From positions 32,001 to 96,000 of the forward strand of contig JBEKIG010000011.1 in NCBI GenBank assembly GCA_050011875.1: 64,000 nt of DNA, in the 5' to 3' direction. Shown piece by piece: positions 31,977-64,000 of the stretch. Within the stretch, counting starts at the first letter, position 1. Each line of letters begins with the position of its first letter. Origin of the DNA: Nitrososphaeria archaeon. GTDB taxonomy: Archaea > Thermoproteota > Nitrososphaeria > JACIWG01. Both the position numbers and the translations under genes were made by a program. The notes under the pieces were generated by a model. That model was not told the DNA's origin. It made no database searches and saw only the letters and a program-made list of their open reading frames with translations.

Positions 31977-32064
31977 AATATATTCATCAAATATCCGGGC
32001 AGCTAGGATATTAGTTTAACTCAAAAATGATAACCAATTTCTTGAATCATTCAGATATGATAGT

Positions 32065-55796: not shown

Positions 55797-56591
55797 TCAG
55801 CGTAATGTATCGGTTGGCCTAATGAAAGCTTTCCTGAAAATTATTAGGAGGATTACGGAGAAGATGATCAGTATTCCTGTGATTGGCATGGCAGCGCTCA
55901 ATCCTTCGCTCACGAAGACATCGTATAGGTCCACAGCGGCGGTCTTTGGGTAGTAGGCGAGGATCACCACTGCGCCGAACTCGGCAATCGCCCTAGCCCA
56001 GGTCATGACACACCCGGCCATGATTCCCCTTGAAGCTAAGGGGAAGGTTATATTCGTAAAGACCTTCATGTTACTTGCACCCATGCTCCTCGCCGCCTTC
56101 TCCATTGAAGGATTCACGGACGAGAAAGCTTCTTGGGCGCTTCTGATAGTGAATGGAGCACTGACGAACGCCATAGCTACTACTATTCCCAGATAGGTAT
56201 CGACGACATTTATCCCCAAAGATTTGTTTAGTCCACCTATTATGGAGTATGGGCCAAGCGCGAAAAGGAGCGCTATTCCAGCAGCGTCGTGGGGAATTAG
56301 GATCGGAATATCTATGAGCGAGTTTATAACGGCTTTACCTTGGAAATCATACCTCGTCATCAAATATGCAAGGGGAACACCTGAGATGAAGGTGAAAATG
56401 GTGGCGAGGGTCGCACAGTAGAAGCTAGTTGCTATAGCGTTAATGGTTTGCACATCAGTTAAAGCTGACAGGAGGCCAGTGGAAGAGCCGGCCAAAGACG
56501 CCAGGATTGGAATTCCTAGGAACAGAACCATGACTAGGCCTAGGATTAGGGAAGTAATGATAAAGGGCGATTTATCTTTTAACCATTTCAT
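55797..56591 (-). CDS. wtpB: Tungstate/molybdate ABC transporter permease
   Basis: GVPLAY, IDIPILIPH..AGIALL, FVSAPF, EKAARSMGA (EAA loop), WARAIAEFGA..ILAYYP. Confidence 0.9.
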   Translation of the reverse strand: MKWLKDKSPFIITSLILGLVMVLFLGIPILASLAGSSTGLLSALTDVQTINAIATSFYCATLATIFTFISGVPLAYLMTRYDFQGKAVINSLIDIPILIPHDAAGIALLFALGPYSIIGGLNKSLGINVVDTYLGIVVAMAFVSAPFTIRSAQEAFSSVNPSMEKAARSMGASNMKVFTNITFPLASRGIMAGCVMTWARAIAEFGAVVILAYYPKTAAVDLYDVFVSEGLSAAMPITGILIIFSVILLIIFRKAFIRPTDTLR

Positions 56592-56601
56592 GTTATCAAT
56601 A

Positions 56602-56647
56602 TTCCGATTTTACGTTATTAAATTTTCCGATTTCACGTTATTAAAAA
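56602..56647. repeat. Tandem 23-bp duplication directly upstream of wtpB
   Basis: TTCCGATTTTACGTTATTAAATT followed by TTCCGATTTCACGTTATTAAAAA; each unit contains CGTTAT. Confidence 0.8.
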
Positions 56648-56839
56648 TTCCTGACTTAAGAGGTGAAGAGTTGGGCAGTATCTTGGGTGAATAAAGGTTT
56701 AAGTTCCTTGGTATTGCCATCAAGTTATATGTATAGGATGAGATGAAGACTGGTTGATAAGCAGCTTGAAAGATAAGTTCCAAAAAGTGAATATTTCATG
56801 AAAAACCCCTAATAAAATGGAATAGTAAGGTGGAATAAA

Positions 56840-57508
56840 ATGGAAAATAAAAGTAAAAAAGCACTTTTACTTGGAGATTATTCAAACCCGAAATATCATC
56901 CTTTGACAGAGATAGACAAAGAAATTGAAAGCATTTTTAAGGATAATTTTTCTTTAACCTGTACTGAAGATTACAATATACTTTCATCAGAACATTTTAA
57001 AGACTATGATCTTTGTATTTTATACGTAGACTGCTGGGGAAAAATAGTTGGAAAAACCCTTACCCACAACCTTTTGGATTTTATAAAAAATGGAGGTGGA
57101 CTTCTCATTATACATAACGGTATTTCTCTTGATTCGAACAAAGAATATGCTGAAATGGTAGGAGCAAAATTTTTAGGTCATCCTGCATATACAAAGCTTA
57201 CAGTAAAATCTACGGGAAATAATGATTACATAATGAATGGAATAAGTGAATTTGAAATAGAAGATGAACCTTACCATTATGAGATGTTTGATTATGCTGA
57301 AAAAAGCATATTCATGATATACTATCATGAAGGGAATACCTATCCAGCTGGATGGACAAGACAAATCGGTAATGGTAAACTTGTTTATATTATGCCTGGA
57401 CATGATATAAAATCATTTAAAAATGATACTTACAGGAAAATAATACTTAGAAGTGCCCTCTGGACCTTTTTTCAGGGTCATGCAAGACCCCTTTTAGGAT
57501 TGAGTTAA
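56840..57508 (+). CDS. ThuA-domain (class I glutamine amidotransferase-like) protein, AT-rich
   Basis: YHP, GGGLLIIHNG, GAKFLGHP, EDEPY, GWTR..GNGKLVY..PGH. Confidence 0.85.
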   Translation: MENKSKKALLLGDYSNPKYHPLTEIDKEIESIFKDNFSLTCTEDYNILSSEHFKDYDLCILYVDCWGKIVGKTLTHNLLDFIKNGGGLLIIHNGISLDSNKEYAEMVGAKFLGHPAYTKLTVKSTGNNDYIMNGISEFEIEDEPYHYEMFDYAEKSIFMIYYHEGNTYPAGWTRQIGNGKLVYIMPGHDIKSFKNDTYRKIILRSALWTFFQGHARPLLGLS

Positions 57509-57568
57509 GCAATTTGTTGATGCCACATCCTCTTTTCCTAGCTTCTTCTCCTTCCAGTTTCTTGAACG

Positions 57569-59824
57569 TTATATAATCAAACTTGCCCATTCTTGTTGGA
57601 CCTTTTTTCTTATTTCCTCTCTTAGTTCTCCTAACCAAGACCTTGATCTATGGGATGCCATAGGCTTCTCTTGAAAAACTGAAGGTTGAAAGAACCGTCT
57701 CAGCCGCATCCAATAACATATCACGATACTTTTCTTTGTCTATGTTTACGTGGGAGCTTGCTAGCTCTAATGGTATGACGCGACAGAGAGGGTTGTGGTG
57801 GTCTGAATCCATGTAGATGAAGTTAATGTCTTCGCCAGACTTTACCTGTTTACCTTTGCTTGCGAGTTGGATGGCCGCAGCCACATGTGGAAGTACGCTT
57901 CTATATTTATTCACAGTTTTCCTAAGCGTCTTAGAGACCACCAATTCTTCAAATGGTATATCTCCACCCATAATTTTGTCTATGGTTCTTGTGATGAGAA
58001 GCATGGCGCGCTCATATCCAACGTTGCACACTTCTTCAACAGTCGTACAATCGAATAGGGTTTGAATGAGCTTGGCTTGGAACTCCTTTATGAAGGACGG
58101 CGTGTCATGTCGTCTTAACTCTATTCCTCTAACGATAAGCTCTCCATCATAAAGGACGCCAAAGTAGTGTTTCTGCGCCTCCATATTCAGAGAAGGGTCT
58201 GCCTCCAACGGTAGTAGAAGAAGGAACCTGTAGTGATGATCCAAGGAAATCGGGAGACCTATGAATTTGCTTAGTTGTGCGGCTAGCTGTTCGTAATCTT
58301 CTTTTGTCGCATCATCCTTTTTGACGAAGACAGAATCTGTGTCCGCATATATCAGTTCAAAGCCCTGGCTCTGAACGTAGTCTTTTGTCCTGATCATTAC
58401 CTGCCTAGATTTTCTGTTTATTTCCTCGAAGGCCAGTACGTTGCCGAACCTGTTCCAACAACACCCTGAAGTGCCATAAATGCACACCAAAACCATCTTT
58501 AAAGCACTTTGACGCTGCTCACACCACAGCCATTCCTTGCTTTGTTTGGGAAAGCTCTTACGGAGCCTCTTGAAATATAATCGTCGCTCCAGAACCTTCC
58601 CTGTCACTAATGGGAGTATCGCGTCATCCCTTTTATCCAGTCCTTTTGGACCTACAGTTTCGAAACTTATACATTCTTTGACGATCAGGTTTGGGTACTC
58701 CGATTCATAGTCCAATTCTGCTACGTTGGCGTGCACCTCACCTATTTTGGGAGGGATGATCATACCGCCCCTATCGCGTTCAAAGATCTCCTTCATAGGC
58801 CGAATGTACTCGTAGTAGCCGGTGTTCTTTGGAATCACATAATCCCTTTGAAGTAGTTCATAACAGACGCGGCTGTCGTTGACCCTGTTAGCGGACCACC
58901 TTGCTGCTAAACCAGGTGTAAGAAACCCGAATCGTGAACGTTCGACAAGGCCAGCTATTCCCCACTTATCGTGCAATATGCCATAGGATTCATAGCCGAT
59001 AGCCACTCTTCCTCGCATACAATATGGAAGAGACCTGTTAAAACTATCAGAATCCACATCTTCTCTTCTGAGTTGCATTTTGATGTTCAGCGATCTTGCC
59101 CGTGTCTGCAGGTATGGGAAGGTGAATTTATCACAGTTCTGTGTAACTATGAAATCAGGGTCCTTTTCCTTCACAATCGATTCGAATCCCTTTAGAACCT
59201 CCTCTTCACTTCCTTCGATAAGAGTTTCTTTATCTTCAAATCTTGTTTCTATCGAAGTTATTGGATCAGTTTGAGGGTTTGGAGTTAGAGACGTTGCTCC
59301 GATGTTTATGCCAAAGTGCAGTGTCGTAAAATGTGGAGGCTCTATCTCTTTACTGTCATTAACCTTTCTGATTTCTGACAAGCACCAATTTGTGTCGTAC
59401 AGGAATTCGACTTTGCTGGTCGGTTCAATTTGGAACCTTGTAAATAAATACTGTTGCAGATGTAGAAGATCTATGTTGAAAAGCTCCATCACTTGTTCCT
59501 GCCTTTTAAGGGCCCCTACTATCTGCCTGTAGGCTAAGGCGTCTTCGACGACAACATGGATGAGCCTTTTCTTTTTCTCTTCTCTTAGGTTTGTGTATTT
59601 TTCTACCCAAGTCGTTCTTCTTATGTCCATCTGATTCTGTAGGGCGGATAGAAGCTGTTCACCATCTTCATATGTCTTAGGAAGAATGTAAGGCTTGGAT
59701 GGTAATGGTCTTGGAGCCTGACAACCTTATTGTCTTCTGTTCGAATCCAGATAAAAGCTAAGTCGTCTTCTGTGTAGACGTCAAGGACCCAGCCAACCTC
59801 AGGTACCATTTGGAGCACTTCCAT
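57569..59824 (-). pseudogene. polB2: Family B DNA polymerase, PolB2/Dpo2-type (degenerate 3'-5' exonuclease), interrupted by frameshifts near 59690 and 57651
   Basis: N-terminal GWVLDVY..IWIRT..HP / YILPK joins the 660-aa ORF with DRGG, LDYESEYPNLI, QSALK..IYG, YADTDS, RGIELRRHD. The C-tail RSRSWLGELREEIRKKVQQEWASLII* is in a shifted frame. Confidence 0.85.
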
Positions 59825-60161
59825 CTGCTGTGGTAGAGTAGTGCAGTTGAGCTTTAAGTTGGGAAAGTTCCTCTTTAATCTCTTTGATGACCTGCTCCTT
59901 CTCCTCCACCCTCTTTGCGAGAGCTTCGATGAGTTTTCTGTTATGCAGATTCGATGTCAAATTGAGCCGATCGATCACAACAGGAATATTAGAGTTAGCC
60001 ATTGCCGCTTGCTCGCTCTCCCATGCCAGTTTGAGTAGGAGGTCGAATGCCTGCCTGTGGCCTTGATCGACTAAACTGCCTCGATACTGTGATTTGAGCT
60101 CATTAACCGTTTCTTCATAAAGAGTGCGCGCGGAAGGCGTTATTCTACCCATGTTCGTCAT
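59799..60161 (-). CDS. Small PolB2-associated helical protein (MGRxxPS family, arCOG07300-like); probable start ATG 60152
   Basis: MGRITPSAR...YRGSL....RQAFDLL..AW plus a coiled-coil tail; overlaps the polB2 start. Confidence 0.75.
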   Translation of the reverse strand: MTNMGRITPSARTLYEETVNELKSQYRGSLVDQGHRQAFDLLLKLAWESEQAAMANSNIPVVIDRLNLTSNLHNRKLIEALAKRVEEKEQVIKEIKEELSQLKAQLHYSTTADGSAPNGT

Positions 60162-61296
60162 CCCTCGTGGTTACATTGATCCTGTTCCTTATTGATTCAA
60201 TGTCTTGAGCGAGCCTTTTAGTTTCATCGTCTATGGTGAGGAAGCGGTTTTGGACGGACTCAATAAGTGCACGAGTGTCCACCGATGCTGTAAGGTTCAA
60301 CCCATCCAAAAGTGTAAATTCCTTTAGGTTGCTTAATGCCTTCTGTTCCATATTCCAAGCTCCCTTAAGCAGAACATCAAACGCAGACCTGTGCCCAAGA
60401 TCTAGGAAATCGTTCTGGAAGAACCTTTTGAGGCGGTCCATCTGCTCACCGTAAAGTTGCTGGAAGGATGAAACGTTCCTTCCTGTCATTAGGTCTAAAG
60501 AACCGGCTTGACTTACATATAGCACTATGGACTCTGGAGTCCTCTTATATGGATGCTTCACAAGCGTTACCTTATAGGATGATATTGGCCCATCGCAGAA
60601 CTTTCTAAAATGAACTAAGATTGAAGCTGCTTGCCTCATGTAGATCCCACCTAACGGCTTGGGAGCCAATACTTTACCTGTATCTATGGCATCAACGGTC
60701 ATAACGAAGGCTACATGGTTTTCAGATGCCGTCCTCCAAAGGTTGCCTACAACCTTCTTCAGAACCTCCTTGGACTCCTTAGGCTTCTTCGAGTTTACAA
60801 GGAAACGTGTGATGTTATGGACTGCGAGAAGCTTAATTTCCTTTTTTTCTCTTATCAAATCTGCAACCTCTTTTGACACAAACCATTGTCTTTCTTCATT
60901 AAATGCTGCCGCTACCTCTACATTTTTGAAGACAAGGGAAGGATCTATACCCACATGCTTCGCTAGCATGCCGAGCCTTGATGGATCAATTAGAGTCTTG
61001 CCGACGTAGTAGTCGGTGTTGTTAAAGTAGACTGCTTTCGCATCAAGGCCACCTTTTTCGGCTGGCATAACACAGTTTACAAGAAGACGATGTATGAGGA
61101 GATCAAGTATCTCTGGCTCACCGTAGAACAGGTAGAAGGACCCTCCTTCAATTCCACCTATCAGGCTATCTAGGTCACCGGAGCCTGTCGTCAGCTTCAG
61201 CCTTTTCCTCTGCTCATCAAAGTCCTCCAGAGTGGTCTGAATAATTGGCATAGGTCTGTCGCCCATCCTGTGGTCGCCTCCAAGGAGAAGGTTCAC
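60145..61296 (-). CDS. Inactivated RadA/RecA-like protein fused to a C-terminal copy of the PolB2-associated small protein
   Basis: LTTGSGDLDSLIGGIE, Walker A degenerate (YGEPEILD), Walker B LLAVHN, KPLGG..M.Q.A, LVKHP; C-terminus MTGRNVSSFQ..LDLGHRSAFDVLLKGAW. Confidence 0.8.
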   Translation of the reverse strand: MNLLLGGDHRMGDRPMPIIQTTLEDFDEQRKRLKLTTGSGDLDSLIGGIEGGSFYLFYGEPEILDLLIHRLLVNCVMPAEKGGLDAKAVYFNNTDYYVGKTLIDPSRLGMLAKHVGIDPSLVFKNVEVAAAFNEERQWFVSKEVADLIREKKEIKLLAVHNITRFLVNSKKPKESKEVLKKVVGNLWRTASENHVAFVMTVDAIDTGKVLAPKPLGGIYMRQAASILVHFRKFCDGPISSYKVTLVKHPYKRTPESIVLYVSQAGSLDLMTGRNVSSFQQLYGEQMDRLKRFFQNDFLDLGHRSAFDVLLKGAWNMEQKALSNLKEFTLLDGLNLTASVDTRALIESVQNRFLTIDDETKRLAQDIESIRNRINVTTRDDEHG

Positions 61297-61322
61297 TTCG
61301 ACCTCTCCCCCCCTTAAGGTAT

Positions 61323-62315
61323 CTAACCTTCTCTGCCCTTCTTTGGCTCCGGATCCTCCACTCCCTTCTCCGATATTACAAAGCGATTTTCTGAATAGGG
61401 ATGATAAGGACTGTCGATAATTGTTGCAATCCTCTCTTGCCCAGCCTTCTTCAAGTAGACCCTGTACGTGCAGGCATGCCCTAAAATGTGTCCTCCAGCA
61501 GGCTTTGTAGGGTCCCCGAAGAACGTGTCCGGCTGTGCTTGAACCTGATTAGTAACTGCTACCGCCACGTTATAGATTTCAGCCATCCTGAGAAGGCGGT
61601 GCACGAGACCGTTCAGCTTCTGCTGTCTCTCAGCCAGCGTCCCTCTTCCCACGAACTCAGCTCTGTGCAAGGATATTATACTATCAACAATGACGAGCTT
61701 GACGTTGTACTGTTCGATGTATTTTCCGAGCCTTTTGACCGCCAGCTCGAGGTGGCTGCTGTTGTAGACCTTGCAGATTATAACGTTCTTGAGAATTTGG
61801 ATTGGGTCTAACCCTCTTGCTTCAGCTATCTGGTAAACCCTCTCTGGGCGGAAGGTGCTTTCAGTATCTATGAAGATCACATTTCCCCCGAATCCACCCT
61901 TCTCTATTGGAAGTTGTGCTGTCACGCAGAGGGTGTGGCAGAGCTGGCTCTTGCCGGAGCCAAATTCACCCCAAAACTCTGTGATAGCCTGAGTCTCAAC
62001 ACCCCCTATGAGCAGGCTGTCAAGGTTCTTCGAACCTGTCGTACACCTAATCATGGACTTTCTCTTCTCATAATTTTCTATTGCTGGAACGAACTCCTTA
62101 TCGATTAAGCCGCTTTCCATCAACGCCTTTTGAGCGACGAATATCATGGCACTCGCATTCTCCTTCGCACCACCGATCTTATCAGCCACTTCATCTGGTA
62201 GGGCGACTGCGAGATCGAGAACAGATTCTATCCCAGCGTCCTTAAGCTTCTTTTCAGTTGACGGCCCAATACCCTCCAAGTCGCGGAGCTCCATATCAAA
62301 TACGGTTACAGACAT
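61323..62315 (-). CDS. radA: DNA repair and recombination protein RadA
   Basis: N-terminal HhH (LEGIGP), FxxA (FVPA), GEFGSGKS, IDTESTFRPER, IVDS, RAEFVGRGTLAERQQ, TNQV, GGHILGH. Confidence 0.95.
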   Translation of the reverse strand: MSVTVFDMELRDLEGIGPSTEKKLKDAGIESVLDLAVALPDEVADKIGGAKENASAMIFVAQKALMESGLIDKEFVPAIENYEKRKSMIRCTTGSKNLDSLLIGGVETQAITEFWGEFGSGKSQLCHTLCVTAQLPIEKGGFGGNVIFIDTESTFRPERVYQIAEARGLDPIQILKNVIICKVYNSSHLELAVKRLGKYIEQYNVKLVIVDSIISLHRAEFVGRGTLAERQQKLNGLVHRLLRMAEIYNVAVAVTNQVQAQPDTFFGDPTKPAGGHILGHACTYRVYLKKAGQERIATIIDSPYHPYSENRFVISEKGVEDPEPKKGREG

Positions 62316-62410
62316 CTTTCTAACCCCTACAAAAAATATTCCATGGGACGATATTTATTGGATGAAGGACCTTAGGGGAGAGGGGAGGGTGGGTTTAATA
62401 CAGCTTTTCT
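62313..62410 (-). promoter_or_regulatory. Conserved promoter/leader, copy A (upstream of radA)
   Basis: The 36-nt core 62346-62381 is 35/36 identical to 63461-63496. Similarity extends to the RBS/ATG and to an upstream TTAA box. Contains the palindrome AAGGACCTT. Confidence 0.85.
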
Positions 62411-62482
62411 GGAATGTCATATAATACACGAATAATCCCTCTCTGTAGATATTCTATTATCAGCTAAAGTATATTTTTCGGA

Positions 62483-62665
62483 TTATTCCTTGAACCACTG
62501 AAAATATAGGAAGAAGCCAACGAATATAATAAGTGTCAAAAGAAAGTATCTTTGGGCTTCAGTAATGTCCTGCATTTCATATAAAATTGTGTAGAACCAA
62601 TAAGCTAACGCAACTACTATAGTAACTCCTACACCCCTTTTTGCCCAATTATCTTTTTCAGTCAA
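62483..62665 (-). CDS. Small two-TM hypothetical protein
   Basis: GGAGG RBS before TTG; two hydrophobic segments. Confidence 0.55.
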   Translation of the reverse strand: MTEKDNWAKRGVGVTIVVALAYWFYTILYEMQDITEAQRYFLLTLIIFVGFFLYFQWFKE

Positions 62666-62684
62666 AATCCTGAACCTCCATCAT

Positions 62685-62870
62685 TTAGAACCTACCTTCC
62701 CCCAATACAAAAGAGATAATGGGAATAGCAAGAATGAAAACAAATAGAATTGTGAAAATATCTGGGAGATTAGGAAGTAGAGGAAAAATCAGTAAAAATG
62801 CAAACAGAATCGCAAGTAGACTTAGCATTTTCCTTTTATTTACCCGATTTTTGGAAATTGTTTGACTCAT
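62685..62870 (-). CDS. Small two-TM hypothetical protein
   Basis: Basic N-terminus then two hydrophobic segments; TATA-like sequence upstream. Confidence 0.5.
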   Translation of the reverse strand: MSQTISKNRVNKRKMLSLLAILFAFLLIFPLLPNLPDIFTILFVFILAIPIISFVLGEGRF

Positions 62871-62941
62871 TCAAGTCGCAATATAATATTATATACATGC
62901 AACGTTGGAAAAACTTTTGTAGCATAGTACATGCAACATCG

Positions 62942-63373
62942 CTACTCCCTAACCACAAAAAGCGTTCTTCTAGTCATGGAGTATAGCAATGGACAGACTT
63001 TGCTATTCAATCTATAAAATCGTCCATCCTTTTCGACGAAACCGAATTCGAGCAGCCTCTTCAAAATCCTATAGGCTGTTGTCCTATCACACCTTAATGT
63101 TTCTACTACATCTTTTACCGTAAGATCCTTCGTCATAACCATCGTCCCAACTACGAGGATGGATTTCCACACCCTCTTTCTTCCATAAGAGGCAGCTTTT
63201 ATCAGTATTTGAATTTCATCCGTGAACTTTTTCATCTCGTATGATGGTGGGAGACGTGAATTGAGCTCCTCCCTCATAACTTTAGAAATGACTTTAGAAA
63301 TCCTGCTACTTACCCTATCGGATAAACTGTCTGCTAAACGGTCTACATCTATTTCCCCATTCACTTTCACCAT
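62942..63373 (-). CDS. Helix-turn-helix transcriptional regulator (C-terminal wHTH, N-terminal helical region)
   Basis: LTVKDVVETLRCDRTTAYRILKRLLEFGFVEKDGRFYRL. Confidence 0.8.
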   Translation of the reverse strand: MVKVNGEIDVDRLADSLSDRVSSRISKVISKVMREELNSRLPPSYEMKKFTDEIQILIKAASYGRKRVWKSILVVGTMVMTKDLTVKDVVETLRCDRTTAYRILKRLLEFGFVEKDGRFYRLNSKVCPLLYSMTRRTLFVVRE

Positions 63374-63428
63374 TTTCTAATTTCTAGAGGATGGGAGTGA
63401 TACCTGTATCATCATTCATGCTTATTGC

Positions 63429-63520
63429 CATCTTTCTGACCTCCACAAAAACATCCTAGAGGACGATATTAATTGGATGAAGGACCTTAGGGGAGAAGGT
63501 GGGGTTAACACCGTCTTTCT
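63429..63520 (-). promoter_or_regulatory. Conserved promoter/leader, copy B (upstream of the HTH regulator)
   Basis: Aligns with 62313-62410, including GGAGG..AGAAAG-ATG at 63431. Confidence 0.85.
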
Positions 63521-63803
63521 AAATATACTCCGACTCCTTGAAGAAACCGTATAGAACCCGGACTACGGGGTTGTCTAGGTTGATCTGGTACCTGAGGTGT
63601 ATGGCCCTAAGCTCCTTTACCCAGTTGATGTTGGTAAGGTGCCTGAGGTTCTCGTTCAGATCGCTTCGCTTTAGCCCTGTACCCTTTATGAGGGAATATT
63701 TGGTGAGGGATTCGTTAGGTTTCTTGGCCAACTCTGCCATAACCTTTATCCTGCCTATTGTTCCAAGGCCCTCCTCAATTTCTCTTTTACGATTGACGTA
63801 CAT
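63519..63803 (-). CDS. Small winged-helix (ArsR-like) protein
   Basis: GRIKVMAELAK...LTKYSL..GTGL.RSDL...L..L..INWV....YQINLDNP. Confidence 0.75.
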   Translation of the reverse strand: MYVNRKREIEEGLGTIGRIKVMAELAKKPNESLTKYSLIKGTGLKRSDLNENLRHLTNINWVKELRAIHLRYQINLDNPVVRVLYGFFKESEYI

Positions 63804-64000
63804 TCAGCCCAGTCTCCAACCGGTTGAACAAACTATCCAAGAAGAGTCCAAGGTTTTCTGTTGGCACACCGCTTATGCCTATCTCTTTGAGAGAACGTAT
63901 TTCGATTATCCGCCTGTCGTGTAGGTCCTGAAGGTAGTCGTCAAGGTCCTCAGTTGGCTTAAGGTGCATGTCTTCACATATCATCCCACAATTGAGACGT
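63787..64000 (-). CDS. C-terminal winged-helix end of an Orc1/Cdc6 family protein (gene continues beyond the window)
   Basis: The frame is open to the window edge: RLNCGMICEDMHLKPTEDLDDYLQDLHDRRIIEIRSLKEIGISGVPTENLGLFLDSLFNRL, resembling the Cdc6 C-terminal pattern ..CE...KP....Y(L/V)..L...GII.....I.L...P...L. Confidence 0.55.
   Translation of the reverse strand, partial: RLNCGMICEDMHLKPTEDLDDYLQDLHDRRIIEIRSLKEIGISGVPTENLGLFLDSLFNRLETGLNVRQS

Follow-up and report, generated by a model that had tools for sequence, protein, structure and literature searches.

The 64,000-nt window analysed here (G000:C11:32001-96000, that is, positions 32,001 to 96,000 of contig JBEKIG010000011.1, contig C11 of the genome that we call G000) comes from a soil archaeon of the Nitrososphaeria and holds at its far end an operon of the archaeal family-B DNA polymerase PolB2, together with the genes and promoter elements that surround it. 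All coordinates below refer to the window unless stated otherwise, and all named genes of this cassette lie on the minus strand in the list of open reading frames (ORFs). Following the direction of transcription, the operon encodes a RadA paralogue with intact motifs (61323..62315, 330 aa), an inactivated RadA homologue, iRadA, that is fused to a PPB2-like C-terminal domain (60145..61296, 383 aa), a free-standing PPB2 of the arCOG07300 type, assigned by its position, its size and its N-terminal MGR-T motif (59799..60161, 120 aa), and PolB2, which is split in this genome. The promoter and leader of this operon occupy 62332..62393. Further upstream lie a small winged-helix (wHTH) protein (63519..63803, 94 aa) and an Orc1/Cdc6 paralogue, with which the wHTH gene overlaps by 17 nt; read on contig C11, the paralogue spans 63787-65091 (434 aa) and extends past the window end, its C-terminal part being 63787..64000. 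The locus is real and well conserved, and in its core it belongs to the published PolB2 operon family and is not a new kind of system. We read it as a PolB2 mutasome operon that has been extended by a dedicated RadA, a box promoter and a Cdc6-wHTH pair as candidate regulator, a reading to which we assign a probability of roughly 0.7.

Comparison with relatives was based on a sample of 61 genomes (G000 and 60 relatives), for which loci were fetched and in which G001 is a genome of the same genus, and on a second, independent sample obtained by searching genome contigs with an iRadA alignment, which yielded 36 loci, 31 of them informative, and has several contigs in common with the first. The iRadA search at E <= 1e-10 overlooked the divergent f7 cassettes, which were found through searches with Cdc6 and PolB2. 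The original prediction had described nine co-oriented genes at this locus, the last four tightly coupled. Co-orientation and coupling hold, with a 26-nt gap between RadA and iRadA and overlapping starts downstream, whereas the number nine is an overcount, two small ORFs of 61 and 60 aa being doubtful genes.

The two proteins that accompany the polymerase are well defined by their motifs. iRadA matches the Pfam family Rad51 (4e-18, residues 31-232), its Walker A motif has become G-EPEILD and the aspartate of its Walker B motif has become histidine (LLAVHN), and in all eight aligned iRadAs the N-terminal HhH domain is missing and Walker A and B are replaced, so that the alignment bears out the RecA-fold protein with destroyed Walker motifs described earlier. 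Where RadA has its polymerisation motif, the iRadAs of this clade retain an FxxA-like segment, [IFM]-x-[TS]-A. At the C-terminus of iRadA a second domain of PPB2 type takes up about 110 aa (phmmer 5e-17 against PPB2, and alignment), and the junction between the two domains reads MTGRN in this genus and MGR[IV][TI]PSF in relatives without a free PPB2. The free PPB2, which begins with MTNMGRITPS and overlaps both of its neighbours, is the small MGRxxPS protein that had been predicted; its true start is likely the second ATG at 60152, which would give a protein of 117 aa beginning with MGRITPS. PPB2-homologous ORFs or fused domains are present in all relatives examined, and the nearest Atlas clusters consist of unnamed Nitrososphaerota proteins, one of which carries the label PF26485 (DUF8156) for 51% of its members, making this an unconfirmed candidate family for PPB2. 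The locus is unusual in having PPB2 fusion and PPB2 duplication together. A second copy of the PolB2 operon occurs in G005 (L033:9875-13627, contig C9), with an iRadA-PPB2 fusion and an 898-aa PolB2 that contains an insertion, and has neither RadA nor Cdc6 nearby.

One feature that sets the operon apart is its first gene. The cassette RadA scores above the cut-offs of both RadA models (NF003301, 404.7 bits against 259; TIGR02236, 383 bits against 361) and keeps the HhH domain, Walker A (GEFGSGKS), Walker B (LVIVDS) and the L1/L2 regions, and the invariant motif residues are kept in the 14 cassette RadAs that were aligned. It is not the only RadA of the genome: a full second RadA, the housekeeping gene that the original prediction proposed to look for elsewhere, lies at C4:76535-77524, and such a second RadA is likewise present in 16 of the 17 cassette genomes of the sample (the exception, G003, is 68% complete) and in three of three further genomes. 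RadA stands directly upstream of iRadA in 12 genomes (G000, G001, G002, G057, G042, G010, G035, G050, G044, G012, G038 and G056), and in G003 it does so with one 573-aa ORF in between; no RadA was found upstream at the fetched loci of G023 and G053 or at the second operon copy of G005, and the position was not scored for G005:C5, which lies at a contig edge, or for G041 and G047, which were not fetched. The ORF in G003 (L034:8188-9909) is tightly packed in the operon and has a Cys-rich segment and a weak PAZ match (E 0.0026, under the cut-off). In the contig scan RadA was upstream in 18 of the 36 loci and absent from 13 with at least 1.5 kb of upstream sequence, the remaining five being cut off. 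According to their record titles, the RadA-bearing loci belong to Nitrososphaeria or Nitrososphaerales, Geothermarchaeales, Caldarchaeales and Brockarchaeota, and loci titled Methanomethylicia or Bathyarchaeota have no RadA. The order RadA-iRadA-(PPB2)-PolB2 is thus conserved across several families, as had been expected for the gene order as a whole; the HTH gene and the tiny ORFs between this operon and the wHTH gene do not share in that conservation.

Phylogenies place the cassette RadAs together. A tree of 40 RadAs has a branch with support of 100/98 that sets all 11 cassette copies apart from the other 29, which follow family codes. A quick tree of 57 rows groups all 23 cassette RadAs (SH-aLRT 87), and a careful tree, drawn after removal of the f7 cassette RadA and one Methanosuratincola RadA as the two longest branches, separates 22 cassette copies from 33 others with support of 98/97; rooted on the other Methanosuratincola RadA, this tree shows the cassette RadAs as a clade. 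The PolB2 sub-clades mirror the RadA sub-clades, which indicates that the genes travelled as a unit. The intact RadA is therefore a separate paralogue lineage that has co-diversified with PolB2. In the main texts consulted and by literature searches we found no description of a cassette-linked active RadA paralogue, and likewise none of the promoter box described below or of the coupling of a non-initiator Cdc6 paralogue to a small winged-helix gene; the supplementary neighbour tables of PMC11791011 may list Rad51-family neighbours. In the housekeeping RadA genes of G010, G044 and G065 (L053, L054, L109/L114) an intein sits in the Walker A region and lengthens the ORFs to 590-854 aa; the cassette RadAs examined have no inteins. 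G000 further encodes two RadA-like ORFs, one of 461 aa (C43:1889-3274, L044, a contig of 4 kb) that has HhH and whose Rad51 match is split, and one of 303 aa that has the Rad51 core only (C4:87585-88496, L055), bringing its total to five RecA-fold RadA relatives.

PolB2 itself shows the expected combination of conserved polymerase motifs and a decayed proofreading site. Its main ORF (57648..59630, 660 aa) matches the Pfam family DNA_pol_B (5.8e-33), and when aligned with the genome's own replicative PolB it keeps LDYESEYPN, KMVLVCIYG and YADTDS with the DTD motif, and the positions of Exo I (DxE), Exo II (FD) and Exo III (YxxxD) are lost or deleted. The best NCBIfam model, NF004416, scores 214 bits, under its cut-off of 516, and the assignment to the PolB2 clade, as opposed to PolB1 or PolB3, is provisional; the PolB1-type enzyme of the same genome reaches 1033 bits with NF004417 and is clearly distinct from the cassette PolB2. 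A 625-aa family-B polymerase elsewhere in G000 (C3:79267-81144, L095:1268-3145) aligns with the PolB1-type model NF004417 over the polymerase half alone (340 bits); it keeps YGDTDS, is without a match to the exonuclease domain and has no adjoining iRadA or PPB2.

The prediction of intact polymerase aspartates and missing exonuclease acidic residues was therefore correct, and that of a single polymerase ORF was not, as the gene is divided into ORFs of 67 and 660 aa. DNA alignment with G001 and G003 traces the split to a 1-nt deletion near 59689 (site 59689..59690), where one T of a TTT run present in relatives is missing. The 67-aa ORF (59621..59824), out of frame with the remainder, matches the N-terminus of the intact PolB2 of G001, a single 742-aa ORF, and of 20+ relatives. 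A second indel, an insertion of 1 nt, brings a TAG stop at about 57648, at which point G001 continues for 19 residues; the C-terminal tail remnant (57569..57647) is out of frame with the main ORF and shares the frame of the N-terminal fragment, and the position 57569 from which the locus had originally been counted is the end of this tail. Logan contigs of runs X1 and X2, which may both be the source of the window, match it exactly over 57600-63373, deletion included, with depths of 7.9 and 36. Run X3, an independent soil run with a strain of about 96% identity, carries the extra base at the frameshift site and an intact PolB2 N-terminus, and it has no indel relative to G000 over 57617-57892 and hence the same short C-terminus. 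The presence of the deletion in the X1 and X2 assemblies and its absence from X3 make it look real in the population and not common to close strains. Because of the 1-nt deletion and the lost C-terminal tail, PolB2 is probably crippled or decaying in this strain.

These lesions raise the possibility that the whole cassette is a decaying relic in this strain, with PolB2 a pseudogene, the other genes drifting and no mutagenesis system remaining. Two frame-breaking indels, the first seen in two metagenome assemblies, point in this direction, as do the degenerate promoter box described below and the differences between G000 and G001 in iRadA, where 19 non-synonymous stand against 22 synonymous codon changes. 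However, the same comparison indicates purifying selection on RadA (6 non-synonymous, 12 synonymous), PPB2 (2 and 9) and the wHTH gene (2 and 8); the 660-aa ORF keeps every polymerase motif and has an ATG of its own; and the near-identical X3 strain has the intact N-terminus. In addition, a search of the 97%-complete G000 assembly for the Y-family domain PF00817 found nothing, so that PolB2 would be the genome's sole recognisable bypass polymerase. On balance we consider the relic a tentative possibility, one to be taken seriously and still doubtful, and hold to the extended mutasome operon for the family to which the locus belongs.

Upstream of RadA, the operon begins with a promoter that recurs in relatives. 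Aligned upstream regions of cassette RadAs share a C-rich box with the consensus CCCCCCTCCCCCC (C6TC6), hereafter the C-box, which precedes a TATA-like AATAAATA or TTATAT by about 20 nt. In G000 the box reads CCCACCCTCCCCTC (62380-62393), the TATA-like AATAAATA lies at about 62351-62359, and a GGGGT resembling a Shine-Dalgarno sequence immediately precedes the RadA ATG. The C-box, with at most two errors, stands upstream of the cassette RadA in 14 of 24 loci, against 0.015 expected per upstream window; ahead of iRadA it is exact in G023 and G053 and has two errors in L064, and L065 carries it, likewise with two errors, ahead of RadA. The cassette C-box of G038 is the sole match in that 1.3-Mb genome at up to one mismatch, a scan whose control is uninformative since the pattern reads identically backwards, and in the G000 genome there are no matches at up to one error. 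A genome-wide regulon left no sign: the remaining matches, those of G012, G057 and G002:C221, fall within coding sequence, and neither G000 nor G038 gives a sign of a LexA-type SOS regulon with a box common to many damage genes. A second C-rich box with CGGTAC and a TATA-like run occurs in G002 (contig C316, L118:1989-2001) before a 73-aa ribbon-helix-helix gene, adjoined by an archaeal-type integrase and a tRNA-like stretch, and the C-box may thus serve a mobile element too. Rfam gave zero matches over 56500-64000.

The promoter is duplicated in this genome. The segment 62332-62390 upstream of RadA returns as a direct repeat (D1, 59 nt, 85% identical) at 63447..63505 on the minus strand, upstream of HTH143, a protein of 143 aa encoded at 62942..63373; the second copy has a degenerate C-rich box and the TATA-like AATTAATA. 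A profile of the 85-nt promoter element found just two copies in G000, both inside the cassette (nhmmer, E < 1), and also matches the equivalent sites in G001 and G003. HTH143 is a TrmB/IclR-type wHTH protein (Pfam TrmB 1.1e-7, HTH_IclR 7.7e-6) that scores only 28 bits with the Sta1 family model, against a cut-off of 80. Among the relatives, G001 carries it, as does G004, with 2-3 copies and no PolB2; a search of the remaining 58 genomes gave no match of comparable score. Between G000 and G001 it shows 3 non-synonymous and 7 synonymous differences. HTH143 is therefore a genus-level insertion behind a duplicated cassette promoter and not a conserved part. Between repeat copy 2 and the HTH143 start, at 63374-63446, lies a 15-codon ORF (MAISMNDDTGITPIL) that is kept in G001. 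Behind copy 1 the corresponding place is that of the RadA start, and the ORF may encode a leader peptide or be left over from the duplication. The two small ORFs between HTH143 and the operon promoter (62685-62870, 61 aa, and 62483-62665, 60 aa; together 62483..62870, minus strand) had no family match, were not found outside the genus, and differ between G000 and G001 by 9 non-synonymous to 3 synonymous and by 8 to 5 codons, respectively, a pattern opposite to that of the neighbouring genes; they are probably not genes. The putative damage-response module that the original prediction drew around all these genes would accordingly be smaller, without HTH143 and the tiny ORFs.

The ORF at the upstream end of the cassette is an Orc1/Cdc6 protein, as had been proposed (Cdc6_lid 7.4e-21, AAA_22 5.6e-11, and TIGR02928 at 201 bits with a cut-off of 181.3), with a Cdc6_C domain match of 0.003 only in Pfam. 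It keeps Walker A and B, its motifs are conserved across 13 paralogues, and the wing of its winged helix is 8 aa shorter than in Orc1-1. Against the Protein Data Bank (PDB) it matches 1fnn (best, 122 bits), 2v1u and 2qby_A, over a range of 104-122 bits. There was no match at E <= 1e-3 to chain 1w5s, the Orc1-2-like Aeropyrum ORC2, and orthology to Sulfolobus Orc1-2 is not thereby established. G000 has two Orc1/Cdc6 genes, and the other, on contig C10 (L092:5832-7046), is Orc1-1-like, with 350 bits to Sulfolobus Orc1-1 (2qby_A), and has four ORB-like 21-mers of the type ACCCCTTTGTTTCCAYTGGAG in a 500-nt AT-rich upstream spacer; a third match of the Cdc6 search, on C12, proved to be an RFC-like protein. 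A likely chromosomal origin of G000 lies on C10 at L092:7047-7410. A stretch of 450 nt surrounding the cassette Cdc6 start holds no ORB-like or other repeats, and the paralogue is thus not the origin-linked initiator.

This bears on the idea that the cassette is a module for replication restart or origin-independent replication, in which Cdc6 marks or regulates a secondary initiation site and RadA and PolB2 carry out recombination-dependent synthesis instead of lesion bypass. An Orc1/Cdc6 ATPase with intact Walker motifs beside an active-type recombinase and a polymerase that keeps the canonical DTD motif is compatible with such a role, which has been proposed for arORC2-linked operons (PMC4104785). 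Yet the repeats found at the Orc1-1 locus have no counterpart at the cassette Cdc6, the sequence upstream of this gene is not conserved even between G000 and G001, the wing of the paralogue is shortened, and the genetics of PolB2 (Dpo2), as reported in PMC7390963 and PMC8764526, point to damage-induced mutagenesis. We therefore judge a replication module distinctly improbable beside the mutasome operon.

The Cdc6 paralogue is connected with the operon by its distribution. At a threshold of at least 250 bits, orthologues were found in 16 of the 61 genomes; 15 of these 16 have PolB2, the 16th (G008) holding only fragments with stops, and in 10 genomes the paralogue adjoins the cassette. In 14 of 17 distinct loci it is directly followed, usually with an overlap, by a protein of about 95 aa, the wHTH of the window, whose profile finds ArsR-type wHTH proteins in the PDB (best E 5e-4) with no Pfam match and whose Atlas model matches MarR_2/HTH_5 clusters with a TM of about 0.8. 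In G002, G042, G023 and G053 the Cdc6-wHTH pair is divergent around the C-box promoter. Co-occurrence and pairing support a functional tie of Cdc6-wHTH to the cassette, and regulation is not thereby established. The pair might alternatively be an independent two-gene module with targets of its own, for instance a general regulator or what remains of a mobile replicon, that came to lie near the operon through joint horizontal transfer. It is a tight unit by itself and, in 5 of 15 genomes, lies apart from the cassette, by 177 kb in G003; PolB2 operons are reported on integrated elements in Thaumarchaeota (PMC6563490); and a Brockarchaeota-labelled cassette nests within Nitrososphaerota cassettes in both trees. 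The near-complete restriction of the paralogue to genomes with PolB2, the divergent arrangement around the C-box in four genomes and the lack of an integrase or tRNA at the locus speak against independence, and we regard it as unlikely.

The flanks were inspected for signs of mobility. A segment of about 9.8 kb that abuts Cdc6 and contains RHH187, kdpCBA and an AsnC-type regulator is present in G000 and missing in G001, so that there is strain-specific DNA next to the cassette; the GC content of the cassette is 44.5% against 40.8% genome-wide (92nd percentile); and HTH143 is multi-copy in G004. These features could suggest that the cluster is part of a mobile element or defence island. However, no tRNA was found within the 18-kb locus (the nearest, tRNA-Lys, is 11 kb away), there was no integrase among the flanking genes and no att-like flank, the flanking genes are ordinary metabolic and transport genes that are syntenic with G001, and the PHROG matches of the cassette are to generic polymerase and recombinase families only, all of which makes a mobile or defensive origin of the cluster highly improbable. 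An exact 36-nt direct repeat joins 63344-63379, at the HTH143 start, with C11:105855-105890, 10.5 kb apart; it breaks Logan contigs in three runs and lies near the far end of the 9.8-kb segment.

Several observations weigh against our own reading of the locus as an extended mutasome operon. The operon occurs without RadA in the 13 of 31 informative loci given above and in two f7 genomes, and since such operons exist the extra RadA is dispensable for the family. The Cdc6 paralogue, besides being separated from the operon in a third of the 15 genomes, was not found in the PolB2-bearing G012, G005 and G047. The C-box is missing in 7 Caldarchaeales-type loci, is degenerate in G042, L062 and G000 itself (2 errors), and was not found upstream of the Cdc6 genes that are unlinked from the cassette. 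Published modelling, in section 3.3.2 of PMC11791011, reports a poor model for PolB2 with active RadA. Finally, with its polymerase gene broken, the cassette of this strain may be non-functional.

With these points in mind, we propose the following model for the extended mutasome operon. PolB2, a family-B translesion and extender polymerase with a dead exonuclease, would act, as suggested by the literature, in complex with one iRadA and a PPB2 trimer; Timinskas 2025 (PMC11791011), from which the names iRadA and PPB2 are taken, modelled a PolB2:iRadA:PPB2(3) pentamer. In Nitrososphaeria and some neighbours the operon has a motif-intact RadA paralogue added at its 5' end, which may load or assist the mutasome, the host keeping its ordinary RadA elsewhere. 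The four genes would be read, presumably upon DNA damage, from one promoter in which the conserved C-rich box precedes the TATA box by about 20 nt, and the divergent Cdc6, translationally coupled to the ArsR-like wHTH, is the likeliest dedicated regulator, possibly acting on the C-box. In this genus PPB2 is duplicated, with a degenerate N-terminal arm in the fused copy and an MGR-T arm in the free copy, an arrangement that fits a mixed PPB2 trimer, and an unrelated HTH gene has been inserted behind the duplicated promoter copy.

A bolder version of this model would see a self-contained damage-tolerance machine of six parts. Here the dedicated RadA would build a nucleoprotein filament on damaged DNA, and PolB2-iRadA-PPB2 would dock onto or be activated by this filament, as an archaeal counterpart of the activation of Pol V by RecA*. 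The FxxA-like segment of iRadA could insert into the RadA pocket while the iRadA pocket holds PolB2, and Cdc6, its DNA-binding wing lost, might form with the wHTH protein a two-piece ATP-driven switch that reads C6TC6 and turns the operon on. We consider this complete machine quite unlikely, our preference remaining with the extended mutasome operon.

PolB2 is the polymerase behind damage-induced mutagenesis in Sulfolobus, and the lineage studied here offers ways to learn how its complex is recruited and regulated. An active-type recombinase in the operon itself may reveal how the mutasome meets damaged DNA, the sharply defined promoter box is a concrete target for binding assays, and the co-travelling Cdc6 paralogue and wHTH are a concrete candidate regulator pair. 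Many non-ammonia-oxidising Nitrososphaeria, moreover, keep two RadA genes of different lineages. For the annotation of this genome, PolB2 should be recorded as split, two small ORFs as doubtful and iRadA as a fusion.

Among bacterial systems, the damage-response operon imuA-imuB-dnaE2 encodes both an inactive RecA-like protein and an error-prone polymerase; a search of the genome with PF00817 found no ImuB or Y-family-like protein, and the polymerase here is of family B and not C, which leaves an analogy only. Sulfolobales Orc1-2 is a regulator of the DNA damage response and, like the cassette Cdc6, an Orc1/Cdc6 paralogue other than the main initiator. The C6TC6 box is unlike the motif known for Orc1-2 targets. 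With the E. coli Pol V mutasome (UmuD'2C-RecA-ATP) the cassette would share, by an analogy drawn in PMC11791011, an error-prone polymerase, a RecA-family subunit and a small subunit with an N-terminal arm at the active site. Pol V differs in being a Y-family enzyme under LexA control whose RecA is the cell's single active recombinase, taken from the filament, whereas in the cassette a dead paralogue would serve as the bound RecA-family subunit, with an active one encoded in addition.

The closest likeness is to the PolB2 operons already in print, whose iRadA-PPB2-PolB2 core with an Orc1/Cdc6 neighbour is established. Makarova 2014 (PMC4104785) describes PolB2 with arCOG07300 and an inactivated RadA in an operon, with an arORC2 gene nearby; PMC11791011 reports iRadA-PPB2 fusions, PPB2 duplications with an MGRT arm in one copy only, a TACK clade near PolB3 with intact DxD and an enrichment of orc1/cdc6 near polB2, and in its section 3.1 cites the link of Orc1-2 to dpo2 induction; and PolB2 (Dpo2) has been assigned genetically to damage-induced mutagenesis (PMC7390963, PMC8764526). 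Such an operon also occurs on a thaumarchaeal integrated element (Krupovic 2019, PMC6563490): as described there, the NitGar-E5 operon, from a member of the same class of archaea, comprises a PolB, an inactivated RadA and the small protein in two copies, and differs in lying within a cryptic integrated element with an integrase, the account of the element mentioning no active RadA, whereas no element borders were found here. In common with the published operon, the present locus has three co-oriented overlapping genes, for a family-B polymerase with a dead exonuclease, a RadA homologue that lacks its N-terminal domain and the ATPase motifs, and an MGR-T protein; further points of agreement are the iRadA-PPB2 fusion, a duplicated PPB2 with one good arm, the intact DxD and the Orc1/Cdc6 neighbour. 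It differs in that its PolB2 is frameshifted, its PPB2 fusion and duplication are combined, its Cdc6 is coupled to a small wHTH gene, its promoter carries a conserved C-rich box, and its first gene is a motif-intact RadA paralogue of a lineage of its own.

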